DNA from: an uncultured Alphaproteobacteria bacterium
Lineage (GTDB): Bacteria; Pseudomonadota; Alphaproteobacteria; Methylaequorales; Methylaequoraceae
Reading direction: 5' to 3'
Length of the DNA: 51,020 nucleotides
Assembly (NCBI GenBank): GCA_902567115.1
Contig: CACFLF010000002.1
Span: 1-51,020, forward strand
In this document: positions 2,517 through 49,338 of the stretch, piece by piece
Layout: each line of letters begins with the position of its first letter
Numbering within the stretch: the stretch's first letter is position 1
The notes under the pieces: generated by a model
Told to the model about the DNA's origin: nothing
The model's database searches: none
Seen by the model: only the letters and a program-made list of their open reading frames with translations
Program-made: the position numbers and the translations under genes

Positions 2517-3242
2517 ATGTTTAATTTTTTTATTTTTATTACTTTAATTTTTAAATTCATAAATTTGAAAGCACATCATAAAATTTATAGTCCGCGCGTT
2601 GAAGAGGGAAGACAATCCCTAGAGTGGAGGGGACATGTTAATTATGATGACAGATTAGAATTTAACAAATCTCATCATCATGTTTTTGAAACAGAATATT
2701 CTTGGACTGATTTTTGGCAATCAGAGTTGGAATTTCATGTTTCTGACAAAGCAGAAACACCCTTAGATTGGGAAAAAACAGAGTTTCAAAATCAGGTTCA
2801 GTTTTTAGACTATAAAAACTTTGCTGGCGCTGTTTACTTTTCTTATAATTTTGTTTCTGAACAGGATGAACCAGATGAAATTGAATACAAGTATTTAAAT
2901 GAATTTAACAATGAAAATTTAAGTTTCATTTCAAATTTTATATTTGAGAAAGGGGTTGGAAAAGGAGCATCTGGTTCTACGTCTTTTGATATAAGTAATC
3001 AATTAATGTTTAAAAAGTTCTTAGATAAAAATTTCGGTTTTGGCTTTTTAGGTTTTAGTAGCTTTGGTGAGGTATCCAATTTTAATACACTTAGTCTTCA
3101 AAAGCATCTATATGGGATTCAGATAGAGAATGAAATTGATTTAGAATTTTTCGAATACGAAGTATCACTTGCTTATCTCCATGGATTAACTGACGCATCA
3201 ACAAACCATATGTTTTTATGGAATATGGAGTTAGAATTCTAA
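2517..3242 (+). CDS. Putative outer-membrane beta-barrel protein (uncharacterised, His-rich N-terminal region)
   Basis: It has an N-terminal hydrophobic signal-like segment, an alternating amphipathic pattern and many aromatic residues. The C-terminal ...WNMELEF has the terminal Phe typical of OMPs. No named family recognised. Confidence 0.45.
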   Translation: MFNFFIFITLIFKFINLKAHHKIYSPRVEEGRQSLEWRGHVNYDDRLEFNKSHHHVFETEYSWTDFWQSELEFHVSDKAETPLDWEKTEFQNQVQFLDYKNFAGAVYFSYNFVSEQDEPDEIEYKYLNEFNNENLSFISNFIFEKGVGKGASGSTSFDISNQLMFKKFLDKNFGFGFLGFSSFGEVSNFNTLSLQKHLYGIQIENEIDLEFFEYEVSLAYLHGLTDASTNHMFLWNMELEF

Positions 3243-3244
3243 AT

Positions 3245-4261
3245 TTAAAATCCTAATTCCTTTAATTTTTTTAAATAACTTTCTTCGCTAATTAAGCCTC
3301 TTTCTCTCATGCTTTCCAGGGATTTAAGCGTAAGTTGGCTTTCACTAGGCCTTTGACTTTGACTGTCTATATATTGTTGATTATAGTTGGGGTATGGATA
3401 TGGCCGGGAATATCTATTATTATAGTAAGGCTGTTGTTGCGAATTAATATCGTATGGTGTATTGCGGTAATTTGGTGGATAGTAATTACCATATTGTTGT
3501 CGATTTGGGATTCTTATAGATTTTAATTCTTGTCTTAAGCTTTCAACTTCCGCTCTGAGATCTTTTACTTGAATATTTGATTGTAGAGCTGTGGTTTGTT
3601 CTCTTGTACTTAAAAAATCTCTTGCTCGTAGAGCTTTATTAGAAAACACCAACCAGTCACGTCTACCTTTTGCAATAGATGGTCTAAAAACTCCAGAATT
3701 TGGAAGTGCACTTAGTCTAAATTTATTTTTTATTGTTTGAAATCTGGAACCTGGAGCATATCTATTTTTTTCTAAATCTCTGTCTCTGTTAAGACCTGCT
3801 TTAAGCATAGGGTCAGTTTCTTGAATATTTCCTTTTCTGAGAATTGACCCAAAAATAAGGTTTAGTCCAGATTTATTGTAAAAAATCCTTCCTGAGGTGA
3901 CTCTATTGTCTGATAAACCTTTTTGTTTATACCAGCCTTCAATTGTAAAAACTATATCTTGATTATTTTCTGCATCTGCTAAAGCTTCACTTATTGCAAT
4001 TGAATAATCGTAAACTTTTTCGTTAGGAAAAAGCTGTTGAGGTTTTGTCCCAAAACTTGTTAAAACAAGCTTTAAGGCCCCTTCAATTCTCTGCGGGTCT
4101 ATTTTAACTGGATGTATATTGTTTGTTTTTTTATCCTCTATATCAAGCTGAACTCTTTGAAAACCACTTTTGTAATAAAATTTATTGTCATCAAAGACAT
4201 CAAGAACGGTTGAACATCCGGCGAGGAAGAATAGAGTTAACGATGCAATAAAAAAATTCAT
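3245..4261 (-). CDS. Lipoprotein with a Q/N/Y/P-rich low-complexity region and a SHOCT-like C-terminus
   Basis: The lipobox is LTLFFLAGC|S. A coiled-coil-like VKDLRAEVESLRQELKSIR is followed by about 55 aa of NRQQYGNYYPPNYRNTPYDINSQQQPYYNNRYSRPYPYPNYNQQY. The terminal LKSLESMRERGLISEESYLKKLKELGF resembles the SHOCT motif. Confidence 0.6.
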   Translation of the reverse strand: MNFFIASLTLFFLAGCSTVLDVFDDNKFYYKSGFQRVQLDIEDKKTNNIHPVKIDPQRIEGALKLVLTSFGTKPQQLFPNEKVYDYSIAISEALADAENNQDIVFTIEGWYKQKGLSDNRVTSGRIFYNKSGLNLIFGSILRKGNIQETDPMLKAGLNRDRDLEKNRYAPGSRFQTIKNKFRLSALPNSGVFRPSIAKGRRDWLVFSNKALRARDFLSTREQTTALQSNIQVKDLRAEVESLRQELKSIRIPNRQQYGNYYPPNYRNTPYDINSQQQPYYNNRYSRPYPYPNYNQQYIDSQSQRPSESQLTLKSLESMRERGLISEESYLKKLKELGF

Positions 4262-4278
4262 ACGAAGGGTAATTTAGC

Positions 4279-4317
4279 AAAAAAAAAAGGAGAGCTCAAT
4301 ATATACTCTCCTTTTTT
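4279..4317 (-). terminator. Rho-independent terminator after the porin-like gene
   Basis: The GGAGAG (4289-4294) / CTCTCC (4306-4311) stem is flanked by A10 and T6. On the minus strand the hairpin is followed by T10. It lies 37 nt past the stop at 4354. Confidence 0.7.
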
Positions 4318-4353
4318 AATTAAAGAACTAAGCAGTATTAGAATAGTAACATT

Positions 4354-5676
4354 CTACCAGAAGAAGAATGCTCCTACACCACCAAAAGAATCTTCTTGAT
4401 CAGTGTCTGCTAAGTACCACGTCTTTTCAGTGTAACCACCCTCAGCAATAAGCCTAAAGTTGTCAGTTACATTGTGCCAGACCATACCTGAATGCATAGT
4501 TTGACAGTTCATAACACCACGCGTTTGCATGTCATTACCTGTTTTCTTAAGACAGTTACCACCGTATGAGTAACCAACATTTGTACCTTGACCAAAATCA
4601 AATGTACCTTGAAGGTATCCACCGTAGGTTTTTCTTTCTTTACCAACATCATCTAAAGCACCTGTTGATGAAGGTGTATTAGAGTTGTTAGTTTGCATTA
4701 TTGGTAGAACAGAGTGCTGTCCTCTCATACCAAGACCACTTGCGTAGAAACCAGTGGCTACTAGACTAAAGCCTTCGTAAGAAAGTTTCGTACCGAAACC
4801 AACACCTGCTGAATCGACATCTCTATCTTCGTCTTGACCAGCTGGTACTGAATTTGCAACTAAAGTTGCTTCAGCTTCAGATCTATCTGTGTTTTGGTAA
4901 GTACCATCAACCCATAGACTCATGCCAACGCCTGTTGCTAGAAGATCGCCATTCCAAGTTATTTGCGCTTCAACTCTTGGCGAAGATTTATCTGTTGCTG
5001 AAAAAGTAGCAGTATCAGCAGCAACATCCTTGGGATCAAAAATACCAACTTTAGCACCAAATCCATTTCCAAGATCTGGAAGTGTCCAACTTACTTGAGG
5101 TTGAAAATCTGTATACAGATAACCAAGACCAATTCTACCAAGCGTTGTATTACTGTTTCCAGCAGATGCTGCAGCACCAACACCGAACAATAGCATATCG
5201 TTTAAGATTGCATTGCTTTGATGGATACCAAGACTACGACCAACTAAAACCGTTCCGAAAGATCCAGATACTGAACCACTCGTTTCACGAATATTGATTT
5301 GACCGTTACCTAATGCGTTTTCACTACCATTCATGTGGGTGTAAAGACCTAACCTTGCGGATACATCTAAACCGTTAGCAGTTGGAGCTTTTAGAGTCAT
5401 ACCCCAAACATTTGGTAGTAGACCAGTTACTATACTTGTATCGTCGTTACCTGCAGCAACACCAGCATATGTATCGAAAGCTATGTTGGGCGTGCCTCCA
5501 CTGGAATCAGGGACATTAGATACACTATTTTTCATTATGAATGCGTTAGCTGCGCCATCAAAAGACACTTCCCAACCTTCTTGACTCATCAATAAAATTT
5601 TTGAATCAACATTTGTGGAAGCCAAGGCCATGACGGCAGGAATTGCAGCTACTGCAATTTTTTTAGAAATTTTCAT
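4354..5676 (-). CDS. Porin-like outer-membrane protein (440 aa)
   Basis: It has a signal peptide (MKISKKIAVAAIPAVMALA|S), a Gly/Ser/Thr/Asn-rich beta-strand pattern and a C-terminal ...GVGAFFFW aromatic terminus. A strong SD (AAGGAAGGA) precedes the start. The gene is visibly GC-richer with biased codons relative to its neighbours, suggesting high expression. Confidence 0.7.
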   Translation of the reverse strand: MKISKKIAVAAIPAVMALASTNVDSKILLMSQEGWEVSFDGAANAFIMKNSVSNVPDSSGGTPNIAFDTYAGVAAGNDDTSIVTGLLPNVWGMTLKAPTANGLDVSARLGLYTHMNGSENALGNGQINIRETSGSVSGSFGTVLVGRSLGIHQSNAILNDMLLFGVGAAASAGNSNTTLGRIGLGYLYTDFQPQVSWTLPDLGNGFGAKVGIFDPKDVAADTATFSATDKSSPRVEAQITWNGDLLATGVGMSLWVDGTYQNTDRSEAEATLVANSVPAGQDEDRDVDSAGVGFGTKLSYEGFSLVATGFYASGLGMRGQHSVLPIMQTNNSNTPSSTGALDDVGKERKTYGGYLQGTFDFGQGTNVGYSYGGNCLKKTGNDMQTRGVMNCQTMHSGMVWHNVTDNFRLIAEGGYTEKTWYLADTDQEDSFGGVGAFFFW

Positions 5677-5800
5677 ATATTTCCTTCCTTATTAGTTAAT
5701 ATATCATTCAATAATAATACACTTAATACATACTAATTAAACTAATATGTTCTCAATTATACATTTTTCTTGGAAACTGTTGTAATATTACAACACCAAG

Positions 5801-6562
5801 TTATTTGAGGATAAAGTTAACAGGGATCTTAATTCTTAAATACCCTTTATTATCTATTATTTCAACAGGGGGCTTTGGAAATTTGAATGAATTTAGGATT
5901 TTTGTTGTAGCCTTATAAAGTCTTTTTGGAGCTCTATCGTTAATTTCAATATTTATTAACTTCCCATCTTTATTTATTGTTAAAATAGAAACTATAGTTC
6001 CTTGTTCCCTTCTTTTTATTGATTGAATTGGATAAGATTTTGATGCCATTTTATTAATTTCATAGGAGATAAAACTTAAATATTCACTGAGCAACTGGTC
6101 ATTAATAACTGGTTTATTCTTTTTAAGAGAAAATTGTTTTTGAGACTGTATTTGTGGTTTTATTTCTGGAATTTCATTTGAATTATTTAATTTTTTTACT
6201 TCCTCTTTCTGAATATTTTTTTTATTTGGCTCGATAACTTTCTCAACTTTTTCTATTCTTTCTGTGGTTTCTTTTTTTTTTAAAGACACAAAATCTTTCT
6301 TTTCTATTATCTCTTTTTTCTTATTTTCAAAAATCTTATTTTGTTCAATAGGTTTGTCTTCAATTTTTTTTATAGTTTTTTCTTTAACTATTTCTTTTGG
6401 TTTAGGTGGTGTCGGTTGAACAAATGAAAATTCTCTAAATTCGCTTAGGTTGACAACATAAATTTCTTTATCATTACTTTTTGATGTAAAAAAAAAAACG
6501 ATTGTAAAATGAAATAGCAAAGAAAATGTAATCGAAAAATATATAAACTTATTATTTATCAT
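5801..6562 (-). CDS. tonB: TonB-family energy transducer
   Basis: An N-terminal TM anchor contains His (LLFHFTIVFFF). A long Lys/Glu/Pro-rich spacer follows (PTPPKPKEIVKEK...). The C-terminal domain YPIQSIKRREQGTIVSILTINKDGKLINIEI...FKFPKPP is like TonB_C. It overlaps exbD2 by 11 nt. Confidence 0.7.
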   Translation of the reverse strand: MINNKFIYFSITFSLLFHFTIVFFFTSKSNDKEIYVVNLSEFREFSFVQPTPPKPKEIVKEKTIKKIEDKPIEQNKIFENKKKEIIEKKDFVSLKKKETTERIEKVEKVIEPNKKNIQKEEVKKLNNSNEIPEIKPQIQSQKQFSLKKNKPVINDQLLSEYLSFISYEINKMASKSYPIQSIKRREQGTIVSILTINKDGKLINIEINDRAPKRLYKATTKILNSFKFPKPPVEIIDNKGYLRIKIPVNFILK

Positions 6563-6962
6563 TTTCTTTTTGTATTACCTTTACAAACACTTTTTTTATG
6601 TCCTTTTCTCTGAATTCTCTCATTATTTTATTAAAGAAATGAATAGATGATTCTTTGTCTAAATCTAAAATATACTTTTTATTTTTTGACTGAATAAAAT
6701 TTGATAATTCTTTAATGTTTAAACTTTTATTTTCATACAAAATTTCATTGTTTTTATTGATTGTAAATACAATACTTTGATTATCAATTTCCACTTCCTT
6801 TCCAAACTCTGATACTGGCCTACTGATTTCATTAGTGTCTTTTTTGCTAACAACCCCGGTTAACAAAAAAAAAATTAATAACAAAAATATCAAATTTATC
6901 ATTGGTATAAGATTTACCATTTCTAGAGTTTTATTAGGTCTTTTGAATTTTTTAAGGTGCAT
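6552..6962 (-). CDS. exbD: ExbD/TolR-family protein, paralog 2 (TM Asp replaced by Asn)
   Basis: 136 aa with a single N-terminal TM segment VNLIPMINLIFLLLIFFLL, homologous to the INIIPLIDIIFLMLVFFML of the upstream paralog. The periplasmic domain is of ExbD size. Confidence 0.75.
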   Translation of the reverse strand: MHLKKFKRPNKTLEMVNLIPMINLIFLLLIFFLLTGVVSKKDTNEISRPVSEFGKEVEIDNQSIVFTINKNNEILYENKSLNIKELSNFIQSKNKKYILDLDKESSIHFFNKIMREFREKDIKKVFVKVIQKENDK

Positions 6963-7350
6963 CCGAGAAATTCACACTTTTTATTTTATGTTTTTTTATT
7001 AGATCTATCAGGTTTAATAAAACCTGAACCGAGGATTTTTTATCATTCAAAATCACAATTTTGTCGAAACTTTGAGCATTCCAATCGTCAAAATATTTAT
7101 TGTCTAAATCTTTTAATTTAATGATTTTGTCTTCAAAAAAAATTTTATCTTTTTTAAGATATAAAATCATAAGTTGACCTTTATTTTGCTGGTTTGAAAT
7201 TTGTTTTTGATTATTTACCGAGAAACTTACTTCATTATTTCTTGTAAAGTTTGTAGCTAACATAAAAAAAACTAGCATTAAAAAAATGATATCAATAAGA
7301 GGAATAATATTAATCTTTAACTTTTTTTTTGAAATTTTATTCAAAGTCAT
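6952..7350 (-). CDS. exbD: ExbD/TolR-family biopolymer transport protein, paralog 1
   Basis: 132 aa with the canonical IPLIDIIFLMLVFFM TM segment and conserved Asp. It has a 4-nt overlap with exbB. Confidence 0.8.
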   Translation of the reverse strand: MTLNKISKKKLKINIIPLIDIIFLMLVFFMLATNFTRNNEVSFSVNNQKQISNQQNKGQLMILYLKKDKIFFEDKIIKLKDLDNKYFDDWNAQSFDKIVILNDKKSSVQVLLNLIDLIKKHKIKSVNFSDAP

Positions 7351-7961
7351 TTTAGCGTTGATAATTTAGAAATTAAAGTTTCAAAGTCATCCATCAGATC
7401 GTTGATTTTTTTTTCTAGGAAATAGTGACTTACCAAAGCTGGTATAGCTACTATCAGTCCCATCGCAGTGGTCAATAAAGCTGTCCAAATGCCACCTGCA
7501 AGAATTGCAGGATCAACCAAACTACCACCAAGTTCAAGTTCATTAAATGAGTCAATCATTCCTATAACAGTTCCAAGAAGTCCAACTAATGGACTAACTT
7601 GTGAAATAACTTCTAATGAAGGAAGGAAAGAGTAAATTTGTTTAAATTCTTTATTTTTAAATGAGTCAATTTCCTTTTCAATCTCAATTTTTGAAATTTT
7701 AGAAGATATAAGGTCAACTAAACTTAAAATAATTTTTTGTTTTGATTTTGGGAGTGTGTCAATAAAACCTTCCCTAACGTTATTCATATTATTATTTTTG
7801 TCAGCAATTAGCAAACTGTAGAATTTAGAAAAATCGAGTTTTCTCAAAAAGTATATTTCAATAATTTTTAGGGTGACAATTGCAATTGTGATTATCGACA
7901 AAGCAAATAACGATGTGAATATTATTCCACCTTTGTCTATATAAATAAAGAACGATTCCAT
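7347..7961 (-). CDS. exbB: ExbB/TolQ/MotA-family proton channel
   Basis: 204 aa with three TM segments and the SPLVGLLGTVIGMIDSF signature of the MotA/TolQ/ExbB family. Confidence 0.8.
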   Translation of the reverse strand: MESFFIYIDKGGIIFTSLFALSIITIAIVTLKIIEIYFLRKLDFSKFYSLLIADKNNNMNNVREGFIDTLPKSKQKIILSLVDLISSKISKIEIEKEIDSFKNKEFKQIYSFLPSLEVISQVSPLVGLLGTVIGMIDSFNELELGGSLVDPAILAGGIWTALLTTAMGLIVAIPALVSHYFLEKKINDLMDDFETLISKLSTLK

Positions 7962-7975
7962 TTTGTTTTCCTAAA

Positions 7976-8728
7976 TTAAATTAAACCTTTCAATAGAGAG
8001 GGGAACTTTTTTCTTAACTGATCATATTCTTTTTGAATTTCAGTGTTGTCAGTTGAAATTCCTTTTGATTTAGATTTAATCTTATGATCGTAAACAACTG
8101 AAGCTGGTCTTTTGGAAAAAAAAATTATTCTGTCTCCTAAAAGAATAGCTTCTTTAAGATTATGCGTAATAAGTATGATTGTGATTGGGTTTTTTTTCCA
8201 ATAATTAATTAGCACGGAGTAAAGGTTTTCTGCTGTCGGTTGGTCTAATGACACAAAAGGCTCATCCATTAATAAAATTTGTGGTTTTTTAATTAATGCT
8301 CTAGCTAAAGAAACTTTTCGTCTCATACCACCAGATATAGATTTTGGATAATAATTCTTAAATTCGTGTAAATCAAAATCTGAAAGAAGAGATTCTATTC
8401 TTTCAATATATTCTTCGTTTTCCTCGCAAACTAATTCAATATTTTCTTTGACTGTTAACCATGGAAGGAGTCTTGAGGTTTGAAAGACATAACCATAATC
8501 ACCATTAGCCATTAAATCACCTTGTTCTTTATTGAATTTATTATCTTCGGCGTCTATTAGACCACCTATTATGTTCATTAGAGTGGTTTTACCACATCCA
8601 GATGGACCAACAATGCAAACAAATTCTTTATACTTGATTTTAATATTAATGTTTTTAAGAACATCAATGGATGTTTTATCGTGGGGGCTTACAAACGACT
8701 TTTTTTTTATGTTAATGTGAAAATCCAA
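7976..8728 (-). CDS. ABC transporter ATP-binding protein (NitT/TauT nitrate/sulfonate/taurine-type)
   Basis: Walker A GPSGCGKTT, Q-loop YVFQ, signature ISGGMRRKV, Walker B LLMDEPF and H-loop ITHNL. A single NBD of 250 aa. Confidence 0.9.
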   Translation of the reverse strand: MDFHINIKKKSFVSPHDKTSIDVLKNINIKIKYKEFVCIVGPSGCGKTTLMNIIGGLIDAEDNKFNKEQGDLMANGDYGYVFQTSRLLPWLTVKENIELVCEENEEYIERIESLLSDFDLHEFKNYYPKSISGGMRRKVSLARALIKKPQILLMDEPFVSLDQPTAENLYSVLINYWKKNPITIILITHNLKEAILLGDRIIFFSKRPASVVYDHKIKSKSKGISTDNTEIQKEYDQLRKKFPSLLKGLI

Positions 8729-8731
8729 TTT

Positions 8732-9481
8732 TTACCTCCAAATGGATATTTTTTTTTCAAATGGCCTAACTAAAATAAATTCTACAAAAATTATTAGAAG
8801 AACAAACACTAATGTATATGCCAAAATACCTGAAATATCAAAAAATTGGAAGAATCCAAATAATTTAAATCCTACACCATTGCTTCTACCCAAGAGCTCC
8901 ACCACGAGGACAATTTTCCAAATCAATGATAGACCTGATCTTGCAGATGATAACAAGTATGGATAGAGTTGAGGGAGTATTACTTTAAAAAAAAATTTGC
9001 TTCCTGAAATTTTATAAAATTTGGCTACATCTACATAATCCTTTTCAATTGATCTTGCTCCTTCTCGCATTATAACAGCAACCATTGGTATTTTATTTAA
9101 AGATACTGCAACAATTGCTGCGACTTCGTTTAAACCAAACCACACATAGCATAAAATTATAATTACTAGTGCTGGTACATTTAATCCCATAATTAGCCAG
9201 TCATCTAAAAAATTATTTAATGATGAATTTCTTCCCATATAAATTCCAAAAAAAGTTCCAATAAACATGGCTATAATAAATGACAAAAATACCCTTTTTA
9301 GAGTTATTGCTGTGTGATAGAAGATTTCGTTATCTTCTGCTTCTAAAATTATCTTATCGAAAACTTCGCTAGGTCCCGGTAAAAGGTCAACCTCAACATA
9401 GAGACTGGAAATCTGCCATAAACTGAAGAAAATTAGAATAGAAGCAATTCTAATAACTGCATTGGGGTTGTTTTTTTCCAT
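8732..9481 (-). CDS. ABC transporter permease (NitT/TauT-type, BPD inner-membrane component)
   Basis: 249 aa with about six TM segments and an EAA-like loop (MREGARSIEKDYVDVAKFYKISG). It sits 3 nt upstream of the ATPase gene. Confidence 0.85.
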   Translation of the reverse strand: MEKNNPNAVIRIASILIFFSLWQISSLYVEVDLLPGPSEVFDKIILEAEDNEIFYHTAITLKRVFLSFIIAMFIGTFFGIYMGRNSSLNNFLDDWLIMGLNVPALVIIILCYVWFGLNEVAAIVAVSLNKIPMVAVIMREGARSIEKDYVDVAKFYKISGSKFFFKVILPQLYPYLLSSARSGLSLIWKIVLVVELLGRSNGVGFKLFGFFQFFDISGILAYTLVFVLLIIFVEFILVRPFEKKISIWR

Positions 9482-9483
9482 TA

Positions 9484-10479
9484 TTATTCTACCCAGAATG
9501 TTCCAGGGGATAGTTCTTTTGCTTTGCCAACAAGTTCTCTTCCTCCAACTTCTGAAAGTATAGAGTAAAGTTTTTTAGAACCATTAATTTGGTCCAATGA
9601 AAAATCTTTTGAAGGAATACCTTCTCTGTATATATCTCTTAGATTTTTAAAGAGTTGATCATTTTCTGCATTCATAAATGGTCTAACTTTTTCCCATATC
9701 TCATCCGATTCGAGCATCAATTTTTTTGCATCTTTTGATGTTTTAAAGAAATTTTTTAGTAATTCTTTGTTTTGCTTTGCCCATTGCTCTTTGAAGACCC
9801 ATCCGATTACAGGAATACCTTTAGGAAGATTTAACTTATTCAATATATCAGTGATATTTATTACTTTAGTAAATTTTTCATTTGTTAACAGCTTTGCTTG
9901 GTAAGGCCAATAAGTAAGAATTGCATCAAAACTATCTTGTTCAATCTTTTTGTTTAATAAAGGTGGAGCACCAAATATTTGTCTACTCACATCTTTAAGT
10001 TCTTTTCCGTATTCTTTTTTGAAGTATGCTCTAAATATCAACCAGCCTTTGTCAACTTGACCACCAGCAATACCTATTTTTTTTCCTTCCAAATCTGCTT
10101 CATTTTTGATGTTTGAATCTTTTGACACTATTAGACCACCAGCTGACATCGAATGTGGAACGAATGCGAATTCTCTTCCTTCATTTCTTTGCCTTGAGAC
10201 CCAAAACCAATCAGTTACTATAAGATCAACTGCTCCGCCTTGAAGCGCAACAGCTGCCGCATTTTTACTTGCTAATTCAACTATCTCTATATTTAGATCA
10301 TTATTTTTGTCCATCTTGAGTTCTTTTATTAATTTAAGCTCCCAATTAACACTGCCATATTGTAGAGATCCAATTTTTAAAGTGCTGGCATAGAGATGAG
10401 AGAAACTAATGTTTAAGATCAAAGCAAGAAAAAAAACATTGGTTATAAAGAGTGATTTGTGTAAAATATTTTTAATCAT
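9484..10479 (-). CDS. Periplasmic substrate-binding protein of the NitT/TauT (NMT1/THI5-like fold) ABC family
   Basis: It has a signal peptide (..FSHLYA|S) and a size and pattern (LKIGSLQYGSVNWEL..., GGAVDLIVTDWFW, KKIGIAGG) typical of SsuA/TauA/ThiY-type binding proteins. It sits 2 nt upstream of the permease. The substrate is unknown. Confidence 0.75.
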   Translation of the reverse strand: MIKNILHKSLFITNVFFLALILNISFSHLYASTLKIGSLQYGSVNWELKLIKELKMDKNNDLNIEIVELASKNAAAVALQGGAVDLIVTDWFWVSRQRNEGREFAFVPHSMSAGGLIVSKDSNIKNEADLEGKKIGIAGGQVDKGWLIFRAYFKKEYGKELKDVSRQIFGAPPLLNKKIEQDSFDAILTYWPYQAKLLTNEKFTKVINITDILNKLNLPKGIPVIGWVFKEQWAKQNKELLKNFFKTSKDAKKLMLESDEIWEKVRPFMNAENDQLFKNLRDIYREGIPSKDFSLDQINGSKKLYSILSEVGGRELVGKAKELSPGTFWVE

Positions 10480-10575
10480 AATTCTAAATAATATTTCCTT
10501 CTTAATAAATATATTGTATTTTCTATACTTTATATCAAACGTCTGTCAATGCTAGTTTTTTTTGATGAATGCAAT

Positions 10576-10809
10576 ATGAAAAAAAAAGTTTATTTTTTAA
10601 ATCTTAAAGGTTATAAATGCCCAATACCGGTATTGAAAATTTCCAAAAAATTTAAGGAAATTAATAAAGGTGATATTCTTGAGGTAAATACAGATGACCC
10701 AAAAGCTGACAAAGATATACAAGAACTTTGTAACAATATAAAAATAAAAGTATTAGAAATGAATTCTACAGAAGAAAAAAATATGTTCTTTAAACTCCAA
10801 AAATATTGA
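10576..10809 (+). CDS. TusA/SirA-like sulfur-carrier protein
   Basis: LNLKGYKCPIPVLKISKKFKEINKGDILEVNTDDPKADKDI contains the CPxP active-site motif and the DDP motif. I chose the ATG at 10576 instead of the track start at 10549. Confidence 0.7.
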   Translation: MKKKVYFLNLKGYKCPIPVLKISKKFKEINKGDILEVNTDDPKADKDIQELCNNIKIKVLEMNSTEEKNMFFKLQKY

Positions 10810-45945: not shown

Positions 45946-46394
45946 TCAATGGAGTTTAAGACTTCTTCTGCATGCCCGTTGACTTTCACTTTTCTCCAAG
46001 ATTGAATTAAGTGAAGATTTTCATCAAACAAAAATGTAGATCTTTCAATACCCATATATTTTTTTCCATACATTGACTTTTCAACCCAAACTTTAAAGCT
46101 TTCGCATATTTTAAGATCTTCATCTGAAGCCAACTTAAGACTTAGGTTATATTTTGAAATAAATTTTTGATGTTTCTCAATTGAGTCTTTAGACACACCT
46201 ATTATATTAACTTTTTTTTTATCGAAATCGTTTTTGAGATTTGAAAATTCTAATGCTTCTTTTGTACACCCCGGGGTATCGTCTTTCGGATAAAAATAGA
46301 TAACTAGTTTTTTACCAGCAAGGTCGGATGAAGAAATTACGGTATCTTTATCAATGATAAAGTTTAAATTTGCTAGTTTTTGTCCAATTTTCAT
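45942..46394 (-). CDS. bcp: Thioredoxin-dependent thiol peroxidase (peroxiredoxin Bcp)
   Basis: YFYPKDDTPGCTKE peroxidatic-Cys motif. 150 aa. Confidence 0.9.
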   Translation of the reverse strand: MKIGQKLANLNFIIDKDTVISSSDLAGKKLVIYFYPKDDTPGCTKEALEFSNLKNDFDKKKVNIIGVSKDSIEKHQKFISKYNLSLKLASDEDLKICESFKVWVEKSMYGKKYMGIERSTFLFDENLHLIQSWRKVKVNGHAEEVLNSID

Positions 46395-46452
46395 AATTAA
46401 TTACAATTTATTAACAGTTTTTTATCATGTAAGTTATATTAGTAAAGATATT

Positions 46453-49338
46453 ATGAAATCCAAAAGAAAAATTAGATTATCATTTTTTATTTCAATAATC
46501 TTTTTGTTTCTCTTTACAGTGATTACATCTTTCATTTTTATAATATCTCTTAAGCCAGTAAAAATAAACTTTTTAGATTTTTTTGATAGAGAAAGTAAAA
46601 TTTTTGAAAAAATTAAAGTTGAAGAGATTGGGGATGTGTTTTTAAGTTTCAACAAAGTTACCAAAAACTTTGAACTGCTTGTGGAAGACCTCGTCTATGA
46701 AGACTCTTATTTCCCAAATGTTTTAATTACACTTGATCTTACATTTGAAAAAAACCTTTTTACTACATCATTAAAAATTTTTGATGGAGATATTGATATT
46801 TCTCTTTTAAGTAAATCTGAAAGTGAAGGTGATACTTTTACAACGTTTGAAAAGTTAAAAAATAATTTTGATTTTTTTAAAAATTTTTCAAACATTCAAA
46901 TTGCAAATACTAAAGTTAAACTTAAAATTAATAAAGAAGATATAAAAAAATACTTAATTGACTTTAATTTAAATAGCGAAGAATTATATTTTTCAGTTTC
47001 TGAAATCAATTCATTTGAAAATTTTTTCTTATTAAATGTATTAAATAAAAATTACGTAAATGAGGTAAGTCTTGAGTTAAATAAATTTAATTTCGATTTT
47101 GTCAGGCACATTTTTGACTTTCATTCTATATCATTTAATAACTTCAATTTGTCTGGATCTTCAAAATTTTTAATTAATAAAGATAAACATATCGATGAAG
47201 TAATTTTTAATTTAAATCTTTTCGGTAATTTAAAATATCCGACCTATAATGGTTTTGAGACAATAAATTTTAATAATTCCAAAATCTTTGGAGAGAAGAA
47301 TCAAGATTTTATTGATATAATATTAGATTTTAAACATCTAGATTCTCAAATTAAATTTGTTCTAAGAATTGATCCTCAACTAAAGAGTCCTGCAACGTTT
47401 TTAGTGGATGTAGGAAAGATTAATGTAAAAGAATTATTAAATTTGTGGCCGATTGATTTCAAAGAGTCAGTTTATGTGTGGATGAAGAATAATTCAGAAG
47501 GTAAGATATTTGATGTTTTGCTAAGTTTGAATATTTTCAAAAAAGATGACGAGTTTTTATTTGAAAATCTTAAAGGAAGGTTTGATTTTAACAATACAAA
47601 AATTAGATACATGGAATCAATGCCTTTAATCGAAGATATTTACGGGTTTGCAAAAATTAAAAATGAAGAAATCATATTCACAATTAATTCAGGACAATCT
47701 CAAGGTCTTAATATAAAAAATGGTATGGTAAAATTGAAAGATTTAGACAGTGATTTTGAAAATGCTGATGTTTTTTTGGAAATATTTTCGGCTAATCAAG
47801 ATGTAATAAACTATCTAGATATTTCTCCTATAAATAAAAAAAATTTTTCAAAATTAAGGAACATAAGAGGTGATACTAAAATAGATCTTGACTTAAAATT
47901 TCCTCTTTTAGTTGATTTGCCGACAGAAAGGATCATTTATGATTCAAAGGTAGCTATAGAAGATTCTATATTCCAAGATATTTTTAAAAATCATGATTTA
48001 AATGATTTTTATTTAAATATTGAAATTAACAATTCAAAAGTTTTATACAACGGTGGAGGTAGGATATTTAATTCTTACACTGAGTTTAGTGGTGAGCAAT
48101 CAAATATTAAAGAAGGATTTACAGATGAAATAAAAGGTAAATATACTCTTAAACCATCTTTCACAGAATATTTTTTTCCTGAAGGTGATTTTATAATACA
48201 GGGAGAGGCTGAAATCTTATATACCATAATTGAGGATAATAGTGGATTTTCAAAAATTGAAGGGTTAGGGGATCTTGAGAATTTGAATTTAAAATCAGAT
48301 TTTCTTGGTCCAAATTTAGATTTTAATAATGGTAAATTAAGATTTCTAATTAGACCTTATGATAATTCCTTTTCTGGATTTGCAGACATTAAAACTAACA
48401 ACTTAAATGTGGAAGTTAATTCAATTTTTAATTTAACTGAATTAATTGAGCTTGATGTTCAGACTTTTAAATCTCCTAACCAGGATTTTAATTTAAAATA
48501 TGAGAACGGAAATAATAAATTTTTAATAAACGCAAACAAATTATCATTAGATTCAATTGATATTTTTGAAGAAGATAACTTAAAAATAGAGAACTTTGAA
48601 TTAGATTTAAAAATAAATGATCTCAAAATCGGGAATATGAACTTTTCAAATTCAATCGTATACGCTAAAAAGTTGAATAATTCTTTTCAAAAAATTAGTG
48701 TTAGTTTAGTCGGTGATAATGATTTCCATAATCTTTCAATCAGCGATGAGGAGGAGAATAAAGAATTTATTCTAGAGTCAAATTATATTCCAGGTTTACT
48801 AAATATTTTAGACTTAGATTTTAATATTAATCAAGGAAGTATAAAAATTGAAGGTTTAAAAAAACAAAATTCTGAGAATTATGAAGGTGCTATAGCTGGA
48901 AAAAACATTGTTTTTTTTGACGCACCTTTTCTTGCAAATTTTTTTAGCATTTTTTCTTTAGACGGTTTTGCACAGAAATTAAAAGATGGTGGAATTATTT
49001 TCAATAACTTTAATGCTAAATATAAATTAGAAAACGATAAATTTAAAGTTGTTGATAGTCTTTTAAAGGGAAGTGAGCTTGGTATTCAGTTTGATAGTGT
49101 GATTGGTTTAAATGACGACTATTTTCTTATGAATGGATCTATTATTCCAGCCTATACGATTAATACCCTTATAACAAAATTCCCGATTGTCGGAGATATT
49201 GTAACTGCTGGCTCTCCAGAAGATGGTTTGATAGGGGCTAAATTTAAGGTTGAAAAGATTGATGGTGAATACGAAGTCTTCTACAATCCAATTTCTGTTT
49301 TTGTTCCAAATATTATTAAAAACTTTCTAGGAGACTAA
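46453..49338 (+). CDS. Large envelope protein, AsmA/YhdP-like (DUF3971-type)
   Basis: A single N-terminal TM segment (LSFFISIIFLFLFTVITSFIFII) is followed by about 900 aa of beta-rich repetitive sequence. The C-terminal region GGIIFNNFNAKYKLENDKFKVVDSLLKGSELGIQFDSVIGL...LIGAKFKVEKIDGE resembles AsmA-family C-termini. I chose the ATG at 46453, because the track start at 46354 would overlap bcp. Confidence 0.55.
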   Translation: MKSKRKIRLSFFISIIFLFLFTVITSFIFIISLKPVKINFLDFFDRESKIFEKIKVEEIGDVFLSFNKVTKNFELLVEDLVYEDSYFPNVLITLDLTFEKNLFTTSLKIFDGDIDISLLSKSESEGDTFTTFEKLKNNFDFFKNFSNIQIANTKVKLKINKEDIKKYLIDFNLNSEELYFSVSEINSFENFFLLNVLNKNYVNEVSLELNKFNFDFVRHIFDFHSISFNNFNLSGSSKFLINKDKHIDEVIFNLNLFGNLKYPTYNGFETINFNNSKIFGEKNQDFIDIILDFKHLDSQIKFVLRIDPQLKSPATFLVDVGKINVKELLNLWPIDFKESVYVWMKNNSEGKIFDVLLSLNIFKKDDEFLFENLKGRFDFNNTKIRYMESMPLIEDIYGFAKIKNEEIIFTINSGQSQGLNIKNGMVKLKDLDSDFENADVFLEIFSANQDVINYLDISPINKKNFSKLRNIRGDTKIDLDLKFPLLVDLPTERIIYDSKVAIEDSIFQDIFKNHDLNDFYLNIEINNSKVLYNGGGRIFNSYTEFSGEQSNIKEGFTDEIKGKYTLKPSFTEYFFPEGDFIIQGEAEILYTIIEDNSGFSKIEGLGDLENLNLKSDFLGPNLDFNNGKLRFLIRPYDNSFSGFADIKTNNLNVEVNSIFNLTELIELDVQTFKSPNQDFNLKYENGNNKFLINANKLSLDSIDIFEEDNLKIENFELDLKINDLKIGNMNFSNSIVYAKKLNNSFQKISVSLVGDNDFHNLSISDEEENKEFILESNYIPGLLNILDLDFNINQGSIKIEGLKKQNSENYEGAIAGKNIVFFDAPFLANFFSIFSLDGFAQKLKDGGIIFNNFNAKYKLENDKFKVVDSLLKGSELGIQFDSVIGLNDDYFLMNGSIIPAYTINTLITKFPIVGDIVTAGSPEDGLIGAKFKVEKIDGEYEVFYNPISVFVPNIIKNFLGD

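Follow-up and report, generated by a model that had tools for sequence, protein, structure and literature searches.

PqqT-family ABC importer genes of SAR11-type bacteria adjoin a conserved Ton module

In the Fhu, Btu, Fec and Lut uptake systems, the importer is of type II (FecCD/BtuC) and the binding protein belongs to cluster A. The lut cluster of Methylorubrum extorquens is an example of an uptake system that brings together a receptor, a substrate-binding protein (SBP), an ATP-binding cassette (ABC) importer and TonB (PMC7391723). The periplasmic protein PqqT of M. extorquens AM1 binds pyrroloquinoline quinone (PQQ) with a Kd of ~50-60 nM and contacts it through L37, T41, A42, G112, K142, N143, Y188 and I222 (PMC11331073), and PqqU (YncD) is the TonB-dependent PQQ importer of Escherichia coli (PMC12124388). 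Here we compare these systems with a locus of the SAR11 type, found in a 51,020-nucleotide stretch of DNA from an uncultured alphaproteobacterium (contig CACFLF010000002.1; hereafter the window), in which genes for an ABC importer, ExbB, two ExbD proteins and TonB form a string on the minus strand and are followed by genes for a porin and a lipoprotein. SAR11 bacteria are usually described as combining passive entry through porins with very-high-affinity binding proteins, and as having no TonB-dependent receptors.

The importer, which an earlier sequence-only reading of this DNA had left without an identity, belongs to the PqqT family. Residues 32-327 of its SBP aligned to residues 3-296 of the PqqT chain in PDB entries 9b1u/9b1v (PQQ-bound; E 2.9e-57), with 34% identity in the alignment. 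When the SAR11 SBPs were aligned with PqqT and three plasmid-encoded homologues, the equivalents of PqqT L37, G112, D141-K142, W189 and I222 (or Leu) were retained throughout, and the equivalent of Y188 was Tyr in the SAR11 proteins and Phe in two of the plasmid homologues. Relative to PqqT, the SAR11 SBPs carried the substitutions T41 to S, N143 to G and E111 to A, and relative to homologues from loci lacking Ton genes they showed no lineage-specific insertion. The permease and ATPase genes adjoin the SBP gene in the same orientation, an order shared by all homologous loci. Other importer types fitted poorly. A sulfonate/taurine (SsuA/TauA) importer was rejected on scores of 43 bits for SsuA_fam (cut-off 163.5) and 25 bits for TauA (cut-off 304), nitrate and phosphonate importers were rejected on equivalog scores far under their cut-offs, and the permease gave sub-threshold matches to SsuC, TauC and SaoP. 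A thiamine-pyrimidine (ThiY) importer was likewise set aside, having neither an equivalog match nor a THI-box; no riboswitch, THI-box included, was found ahead of the importer, and no Rfam match anywhere in the window. While assignment to the PqqT family is direct, the ligand is predicted from it: most likely, the importer takes up PQQ or a closely related anionic quinone or cofactor from the periplasm.

We then looked at the company that this importer family keeps in other bacteria. SBP homologues of 37-44% identity were present on 175 alphaproteobacterial plasmids or chromids, and five plasmid loci were examined (Phaeobacter, Azospirillum, Phyllobacterium, Pseudosulfitobacter and Rhizobium; homologues 38-42% identical to the SAR11 SBP). 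A PQQ-dependent methanol or ethanol dehydrogenase was encoded within ~3 kb of the SBP gene in all five, and most also carried PedF, PedA1A2BC-type, quinoprotein-relay or pqq biosynthesis genes (PedF in 4/5; pqq biosynthesis in 2/5). Permease and ATPase genes followed the SBP gene in three of the five, the two roseobacter records annotating the ATPase only, and exbBD-tonB genes adjoined the importer in none (0/5). A metagenome scan with the SBP alignment returned 80 loci, with PQQ-dehydrogenase homologues near the SBP gene in L056, L062, L066, L067, L092, L095 and L098. In L093 and its close relative L068, both marine (36-37% G+C), a gene for an 813-aa receptor was followed by a second receptor gene, SBP-permease-ATPase, a Porin_4 porin and a LuxR-type regulator, with FecI and FecR encoded upstream of the first receptor in L093. 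The only strong PDB matches of the 813-aa receptor were YncD (6v81) and an entry titled 'pyrroloquinoline quinone transporter' (9c4o), at E ~1e-18. A PqqU-like receptor was also encoded directly upstream of the SBP in L107 and nearby in L066. The importer family thus has genomic links with PQQ enzymes as well as with TonB-dependent PQQ receptors. In their own right, L093 (3170-11976) and L068 (3117-11911, with PedA2BC-like genes upstream) define an apparent complete PQQ uptake locus, comprising a PqqU-like receptor, a PqqT importer and a porin, in other marine bacteria.

Pelagibacterales-type genome loci found through ExbB were colinear with the window as far as their contigs reach (26/26; ExbB identity down to 51%), and most held the full block, running from aroC through tusA, SBP-permease-ATPase-exbB-exbD-exbD-tonB-porin-lipoprotein and on to proteorhodopsin. 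As this set was chosen via ExbB and is hence biased, loci selected through the SBP served as a set independent of Ton: exbB directly followed the ATPase gene in every SAR11-type locus with enough downstream sequence (13/13) and in none from other lineages (0/26). The ATPase-exbB junction noted in the sequence-only reading is thus kept in both sets of SAR11-type loci (26/26 and 13/13), measuring 4-26 nt in 30 loci and being a 4-nt overlap in L112. The porin is differently distributed. An AT-rich marine lineage contributed three loci (L060, L061 and L064; 27-28% G+C) in which SBP-permease-ATPase were followed by ~300-400 nt of non-coding DNA and then by porin and lipoprotein genes, with no Ton genes between importer and porin. 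These loci are partly syntenic with SAR11, having tusA beside the SBP gene and, in L060 and L061, xseB-ispA ~6 kb further upstream; their porins share ~33% identity with the SAR11 protein (Porin_4 E 1e-23) and their lipoproteins 25-27% (SHOCT E 2.5e-6 in L060). A porin gene also came directly after the ATPase gene in L093, L068 and L080, and in L087 a porin-lipoprotein pair lay ~2 kb upstream of the SBP gene. The position of the outer-membrane protein gene behind the importer, which the sequence-only reading had treated as part of one arrangement with the Ton genes, is therefore conserved in SAR11-type loci but found equally in L060, L061 and L064. Since the porin, with or without the lipoprotein, is linked to the importer in lineages without Ton genes too, this linkage extends further than that of the Ton genes and probably predates it. 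The most parsimonious account is that the Ton module was inserted in the SAR11 lineage, the alternative being a deletion in the sister lineage.

The Ton module itself is complete, under purifying selection, and looks functional. In pairwise comparisons with seven close relatives, the ratio of non-synonymous to synonymous substitution rates was 0.08-0.19 for exbB, 0.16-0.38 for the two exbD genes and 0.14-0.20 for tonB. The transmembrane Asp of ExbD1 was invariant among orthologues (36/36), and ExbD2 had Asn at the corresponding position (residue ~23) in all of its own (33/33), which suggests that the two may form an obligate heterodimer with a single protonatable site. The SxxxH anchor of TonB was conserved in 31 orthologues, and the best PDB match of the protein was the C-terminal domain of Vibrio TonB2 (E 9.5e-4), with the YP motif aligned. 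ExbB scored 83.6 bits on the TolQ model and 58.7 on the ExbB model, both far under the cut-off. We rejected a Tol-Pal identity for the module, as its TonB_C domain with YP is not of the TolA type, it has two ExbD genes, no TolB or Pal gene adjoins it, and what lies downstream is a porin and a SHOCT lipoprotein. On two roseobacter plasmids (L118 6278-9699; L119 6284-9549), genes for a small hypothetical protein, ExbB, ExbD, ExbD and a DUF4384 protein adjoin type VI secretion genes and a gene for a caspase-family protein, with neither TonB nor a receptor. These modules look like Ton-like motors working with a different partner.

The open reading frame coordinates (Table 1) reproduced exactly the gene order, gaps, overlaps and 124-nt spacer described in the sequence-only reading, and Pfam matches bore out its naming of the seven genes (NMT1, BPD_transp_1, ABC_tran, MotA_ExbB, ExbD twice and TonB_C). 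Its statement that neither a hairpin nor a T-tract separates the seven genes also agreed with our terminator scan of the region, which placed no terminator-like site at any junction within the string (6 sites in the region vs 3.2 +/- 2.0 expected), and the Shine-Dalgarno sequence and terminator it ascribed to the outer-membrane protein gene were recovered by direct reading (AAGGAAGG for the former; stem and T-run at ~4279-4318 for the latter). Promoter-like sites showed no excess that would point to internal promoters (37 vs 42.7 in shuffled sequence). A TTGACA/TATAGA pair with 16-nt spacing ahead of the SBP gene is a candidate promoter of the importer operon; the consensus promoter scan omitted it because its -10 hexamer ends in A. 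The divergent TusA-like open reading frame at 10549-10809 (+) probably starts at an internal ATG at 10576 (MKKKVYFL...), leaving a 96-nt divergent intergenic region that holds this candidate promoter, and the SBP gene has tusA as its upstream neighbour in the more distant L055 and L060-type loci as well. The window, whose 30% G+C and proteorhodopsin gene are in keeping with a SAR11-type genome, is ~95.5% coding, with a median same-strand gap of 1 nt by simple gene calls and 76% of same-strand neighbours at most 14 nt apart, and the whole 17-kb block is syntenic across SAR11 loci with nearly all neighbours closely packed. Since close packing is the genomic norm, spacing by itself is no evidence of shared function or functional coupling. 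Co-transcription of the seven genes from SBP to tonB, as had been proposed, is likely on their packing, which is conserved in every SAR11-type locus examined, although such packing is in itself unremarkable in this genome.

Table 1. Features of the importer-Ton-porin region, with positions in the window
Feature	Position	Strand	Evidence
PqqT-family SBP, NMT1/SsuA-like fold, signal peptide	9484..10479	-	Pfam NMT1 E 2e-11; PDB 9b1u/9b1v E 2.9e-57
ABC permease, BPD_transp_1, NitT/TauT type	8732..9481	-	Pfam E 1.5e-26; 2-nt gap after SBP
ABC ATPase	7976..8728	-	Pfam ABC_tran E 2e-29; 3-nt gap after permease
ExbB-type proton-channel subunit	7347..7961	-	Pfam MotA_ExbB E 1.4e-26; 14-nt gap after ATPase stop
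ExbD1, transmembrane Asp in IPLIDIIF	6952..7350	-	Pfam ExbD E 1e-18; 4-nt overlap with exbB
ExbD2, Asn in place of Asp, IPMINLIF	6552..6962	-	Pfam ExbD E 2.3e-14; 11-nt overlap with exbD1
TonB: SxxxH anchor, Lys/Glu-rich spacer, TonB_C with YP	5801..6562	-	Pfam TonB_C E 1.2e-9; 11-nt overlap with exbD2
Inverted repeat TGTTGTA-N4-TACAACA	5778..5795	-	1 copy in window; RNA fold -11.1 kcal/mol
440-aa porin, ~16 strands, divergent Porin_4-type family	4354..5676	-	AlphaFold2 + Foldseek; 124-nt spacer after tonB
Intrinsic terminator 3' of porin, stem AAAGGAGAG...CTCTCCTTT then T-run	~4279..4318	-	Direct reading
Lipoprotein, LAGC lipobox, C-terminal SHOCT-like motif	3245..4261	-	Weak Pfam SHOCT match
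Candidate sigma-70 promoter: TTGACA 10549-10544, 16-nt spacer, TATAGA 10527-10522	10522..10549	-	Direct reading

Plug or TonB_dep_Rec domains were absent from the 20 largest other open reading frames of the window (212-994 aa, including all of at least 426 aa), the large ones encoding FTHFS, a Clp-family AAA+ ATPase, RNase E/G, a class A penicillin-binding protein and a YhdP-like protein. Nor was a TonB-dependent receptor encoded in ~40 SAR11 loci, each up to 21 kb. The absence of a receptor from the window, claimed in the sequence-only reading, thus holds for its open reading frames and extends to SAR11 loci of ~20 kb, and the lack of such receptors in SAR11-type genomes, which it had mentioned, accords with the zero TonB-dependent transporters listed for strains HTCC1062 and HTCC1002 (PMC3400609). 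Candidatus Pelagibacter ubique has likewise been reported to be without genes for TonB-dependent iron or siderophore uptake (PMC1698941, PMC3475125). In this genome, whose set of envelope genes is minimal, the 994-aa protein encoded at 46354-49338 (+) is a candidate bridge for envelope lipid transport, with a marginal YhdP/AsmA-like match (47 bits vs a cut-off of 46).

We next turned to the 440-aa outer-membrane protein, which the sequence-only reading had put forward as a non-canonical partner of the Ton motor. An AlphaFold2 model built on 43 diverse family members (pLDDT 84.6, as against 35.7 with 18 near-identical sequences) showed ~16 strands and a helix-bearing inward loop, and the top Foldseek matches were DcaP, Omp32, PorB and OmpF (E 1e-15 to 1e-11; TM-score 0.65-0.80 relative to the targets). 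While the protein itself had no Pfam match above threshold and no PDB match by sequence, Porin_4 was matched by 15/43 of its family members and by the L060, L093 and L068 homologues (E down to ~1e-26). On this model, the protein is predicted to be an ordinary passive general porin. A TonB-dependent transporter was rejected, given the absence of any Plug or TonB_dep_Rec match, the ~16 strands and the porin-family N-terminus. The mature N-terminus, STNVDSKILLMS (KILLMSQEGW), was also rejected as a TonB box, being a strand found throughout the porin family, including relatives from distant sequence clusters; its motif, K-[IV]-x-[LIV] ... GW-x-[VFI]-[ST]-[FL]-D-G, lies at the mature N-terminus throughout. 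The gene's own upstream element, Shine-Dalgarno sequence and terminator, and its adjacency to the importer both in loci without Ton genes (L060, L061 and L064) and in loci with receptors (L093 and L068), also speak against a role as Ton partner. The porin is probably a passive entry route.

The upstream element is an inverted repeat just past the tonB stop codon, which had been missed in the sequence-only reading. It occurs once in the window against 0.01 expected, and was present in the tonB-porin spacer of all aligned SAR11-type sequences (27/27) and, once per locus, in L001-L027, L043, L046-L049, L054, L064 and L112-L114. Its GTTG/CAAC core was invariant, with one stem position appearing as T-A, T.G or C-G, plus two C.A mismatches, and as RNA it folded at -11.1 kcal/mol (z -2.5). 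Since the repeat also stands upstream of the porin in L064, which has no Ton genes, it belongs to the porin unit, where it may serve either as an RNA hairpin or as the porin gene's operator. Homologues of the lipoprotein, for which a profile search found no PDB relative, adjoin the porin homologue in L060, L061, L064 and L087. Synonymous divergence (dS) of the porin and lipoprotein genes was 1.0-2.2 against six of the seven close relatives (L002-L007 and L014), as compared with 0.1-0.9 for neighbouring genes (1.2 at most, against L014), and was low for both genes against L005. On this pattern the two appear to have been exchanged jointly as an allelic cassette, as is expected of surface proteins such as phage receptors. 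An open reading frame converging on the lipoprotein gene with a 2-nt gap (2517-3242, +) encodes a 241-aa protein with no family match, which ends in Phe, has a beta-rich sequence resembling outer-membrane proteins, and is conserved in place in all SAR11 loci reaching it (51-93% identity); a small barrel of the outer membrane is a possible identity.

We propose that the SAR11 locus is a PqqT-family cofactor importer operon that acquired a Ton motor and now belongs to a TonB-linked route for which the locus encodes no outer-membrane component, a tentative reading to which we give somewhat less than an even chance. While gene order, families, conservation, selection and genomic contexts were observed, the ligand, co-transcription and a functional link between Ton motor and importer are what we infer from them. 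In the proposed scheme, the SBP, permease and ATPase would import PQQ or a related anionic quinone or cofactor from the periplasm, and a second module (exbB, exbD1, exbD2 and tonB) would have been inserted in SAR11 between the ATPase gene and the older porin-lipoprotein pair. Because the same importer pairs elsewhere with a PqqU/YncD-type receptor, we read the placement of the Ton genes in the importer operon as suggesting that TonB energises the scavenging route, or did so until recently. An outer-membrane component on which TonB would act is absent from the locus and cannot be recognised in published SAR11 gene inventories, and the porin would be transcribed on its own as a probable diffusive entry for small anionic solutes that is not TonB-gated. 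The envelope-spanning ABC-Ton route imagined in the sequence-only reading is to that extent plausible, the importer lying directly behind PqqU-type receptors elsewhere, but it would not run through the 440-aa protein.

Several points weigh against this proposal. PQQ enzymes are periplasmic. Import of PQQ into the cytoplasm by a non-producer is hard to rationalise, and the true ligand may differ. Neither the window nor any SAR11 locus held a PQQ-dependent enzyme or a pqq gene, and the SAR11 alcohol dehydrogenase is described as being of the iron type, with the classical PQQ enzyme lacking (PMC3160333); SAR11 is not known to have any PQQ enzyme. If SAR11 is truly receptor-free, there would be no canonical TonB-dependent step, and the motor would have another task or partner. 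Close spacing and conserved order weigh little in SAR11, and no other lineage puts Ton genes beside this importer, so that coupling is argued by analogy with receptor-importer loci. The nearest plasmid-borne relatives of ExbB belong to ExbB-ExbD-ExbD-DUF4384 modules unrelated to uptake. Alternatively, the adjacency could be incidental and the motor a general envelope energiser (for outer-membrane homeostasis, division, or some secretion or uptake task) that came to lie behind the importer genes because, in a 95%-coding genome, new genes persist most readily on a borrowed promoter. In favour of this, close packing is the norm and the whole block is syntenic, importer homologues elsewhere have no adjoining Ton genes (0/26), the roseobacter ExbB-ExbD-ExbD modules have non-TonB partners, no receptor has been reported in SAR11, and ExbB scores slightly higher on the TolQ than on the ExbB model (83.6 vs 58.7 bits, both far under the cut-off). 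Yet the periplasm-spanning protein is of the TonB type (TonB_C, YP), there are two ExbD genes and no adjacent TolB or Pal, and the insertion falls precisely inside an operon whose importer family pairs elsewhere with TonB-dependent receptors; we regard incidental adjacency as unlikely, but as an alternative to be taken seriously. The envelope-maintenance role that the sequence-only reading offered as its own alternative may likewise hold.

The TonB-linked route that we prefer could also be fully canonical, with a PqqU-like or other receptor encoded elsewhere in these genomes, or in some strains, and missed by older inventories. The published zero counts concern two strains and date from 2012, and PqqU-like receptors are encoded beside the importer in other AT-rich marine lineages. 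It is common in other bacteria for receptor genes to lie apart from tonB-exbBD. We nonetheless consider a canonical receptor improbable, as none was listed for either of two genomes (PMC3400609), two papers report no TonB-dependent iron or siderophore uptake genes, and no receptor appeared in the 51-kb window or in ~40 SAR11 loci of up to 21 kb. Alternatively, TonB could act on a non-canonical partner, be it the porin-lipoprotein pair or the SBP itself. In E. coli, contacts of TonB with the binding proteins FhuD and BtuF have been reported, and in Myxococcus gliding, TonB-like proteins cooperate with barrels that are not receptors. The motor is kept under selection in a lineage reported to be receptor-free, and right behind its genes those for porin and lipoprotein form a conserved pair. 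The porin is nevertheless predicted to be a plain 16-strand barrel without a plug, its N-terminus is a family-wide strand, its gene has its own regulatory element and terminator, its linkage to the importer appears to be older than the Ton insertion and is also seen, in L093 and L068, alongside real receptors, and the SBPs carry no lineage-specific insertion; such a partner seems to us quite improbable. We likewise give little credence to the broader possibility of a SAR11 uptake route of PQQ type in which TonB acts, with no 22-strand plug receptor, on the porin-lipoprotein pair, an unrecognised barrel or the SBP.

A conserved, selected Ton motor in one importer operon does not sit well with the passive-entry picture of SAR11 and offers a concrete starting point for tracing the motor's function. 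The PqqT-family assignment of the SAR11 importer is new, as far as we found in the literature: in the portion of that literature available to us, no paper was found on SAR11 Ton genes or linking SAR11 to PQQ uptake, and a systematic survey of 18 SAR11 binding proteins, two of which were not expressed, makes no mention of PQQ or TonB in the part of its text consulted (PMC11485210). If the ligand is PQQ, SAR11 would consume a cofactor that it is not known to use, with implications for how cofactors are exchanged in the surface ocean. Were TonB to work there without a 22-strand plug receptor, the most abundant ocean bacterium would have a novel mode of Ton-dependent transport.

Set against described systems, the locus resembles each in part. 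The 440-aa protein has the fold of 16-strand porins of the general or anion-preferring kind (DcaP, Omp32, PorB and OmpF) but is ~100 residues longer, has no Pfam match and is paired with a SHOCT-tailed lipoprotein. Like Tol-Pal, the motor combines a MotA/ExbB-type stator, ExbD/TolR-type subunits and an SxxxH-anchored periplasm-spanning protein, whereas its TonB_C domain with YP, two ExbD genes and lack of an adjacent TolB or Pal set it apart. With the Fhu, Btu, Fec and Lut systems, the comparison is one of an outer-membrane step energised by ExbB-ExbD-TonB, an SBP and an ABC importer; the SAR11 locus differs in its type I permease of the NitT/TauT type, its NMT1-like SBP, its two ExbD proteins, of which one is without the Asp, and its lack of a receptor gene. 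PqqU (YncD) of E. coli (6V81, 9C4O; PMC12124388) offers a precedent for TonB-ExbBD-dependent PQQ scavenging by a non-producer, and PqqU-like receptors are linked to the importer family in L093, L068 and L107. SAR11, in contrast, has a motor and an importer and no recognisable receptor. For its part, E. coli has the receptor PqqU and, to our knowledge, no PqqT-type importer. A further counterpart is the PqqT transporter of M. extorquens AM1. While the SAR11 locus has no nearby PQQ-dependent dehydrogenase, PedF cytochrome or pqq genes, differs in its SBP at three contact positions (T to S, N to G and E to A), and has Ton genes downstream as in no other lineage, it shares with PqqT full-length homology of the SBP, the gene order seen in relatives, the Lys, the stacking Tyr, and the Gly and Leu that contact the ligand through the backbone.

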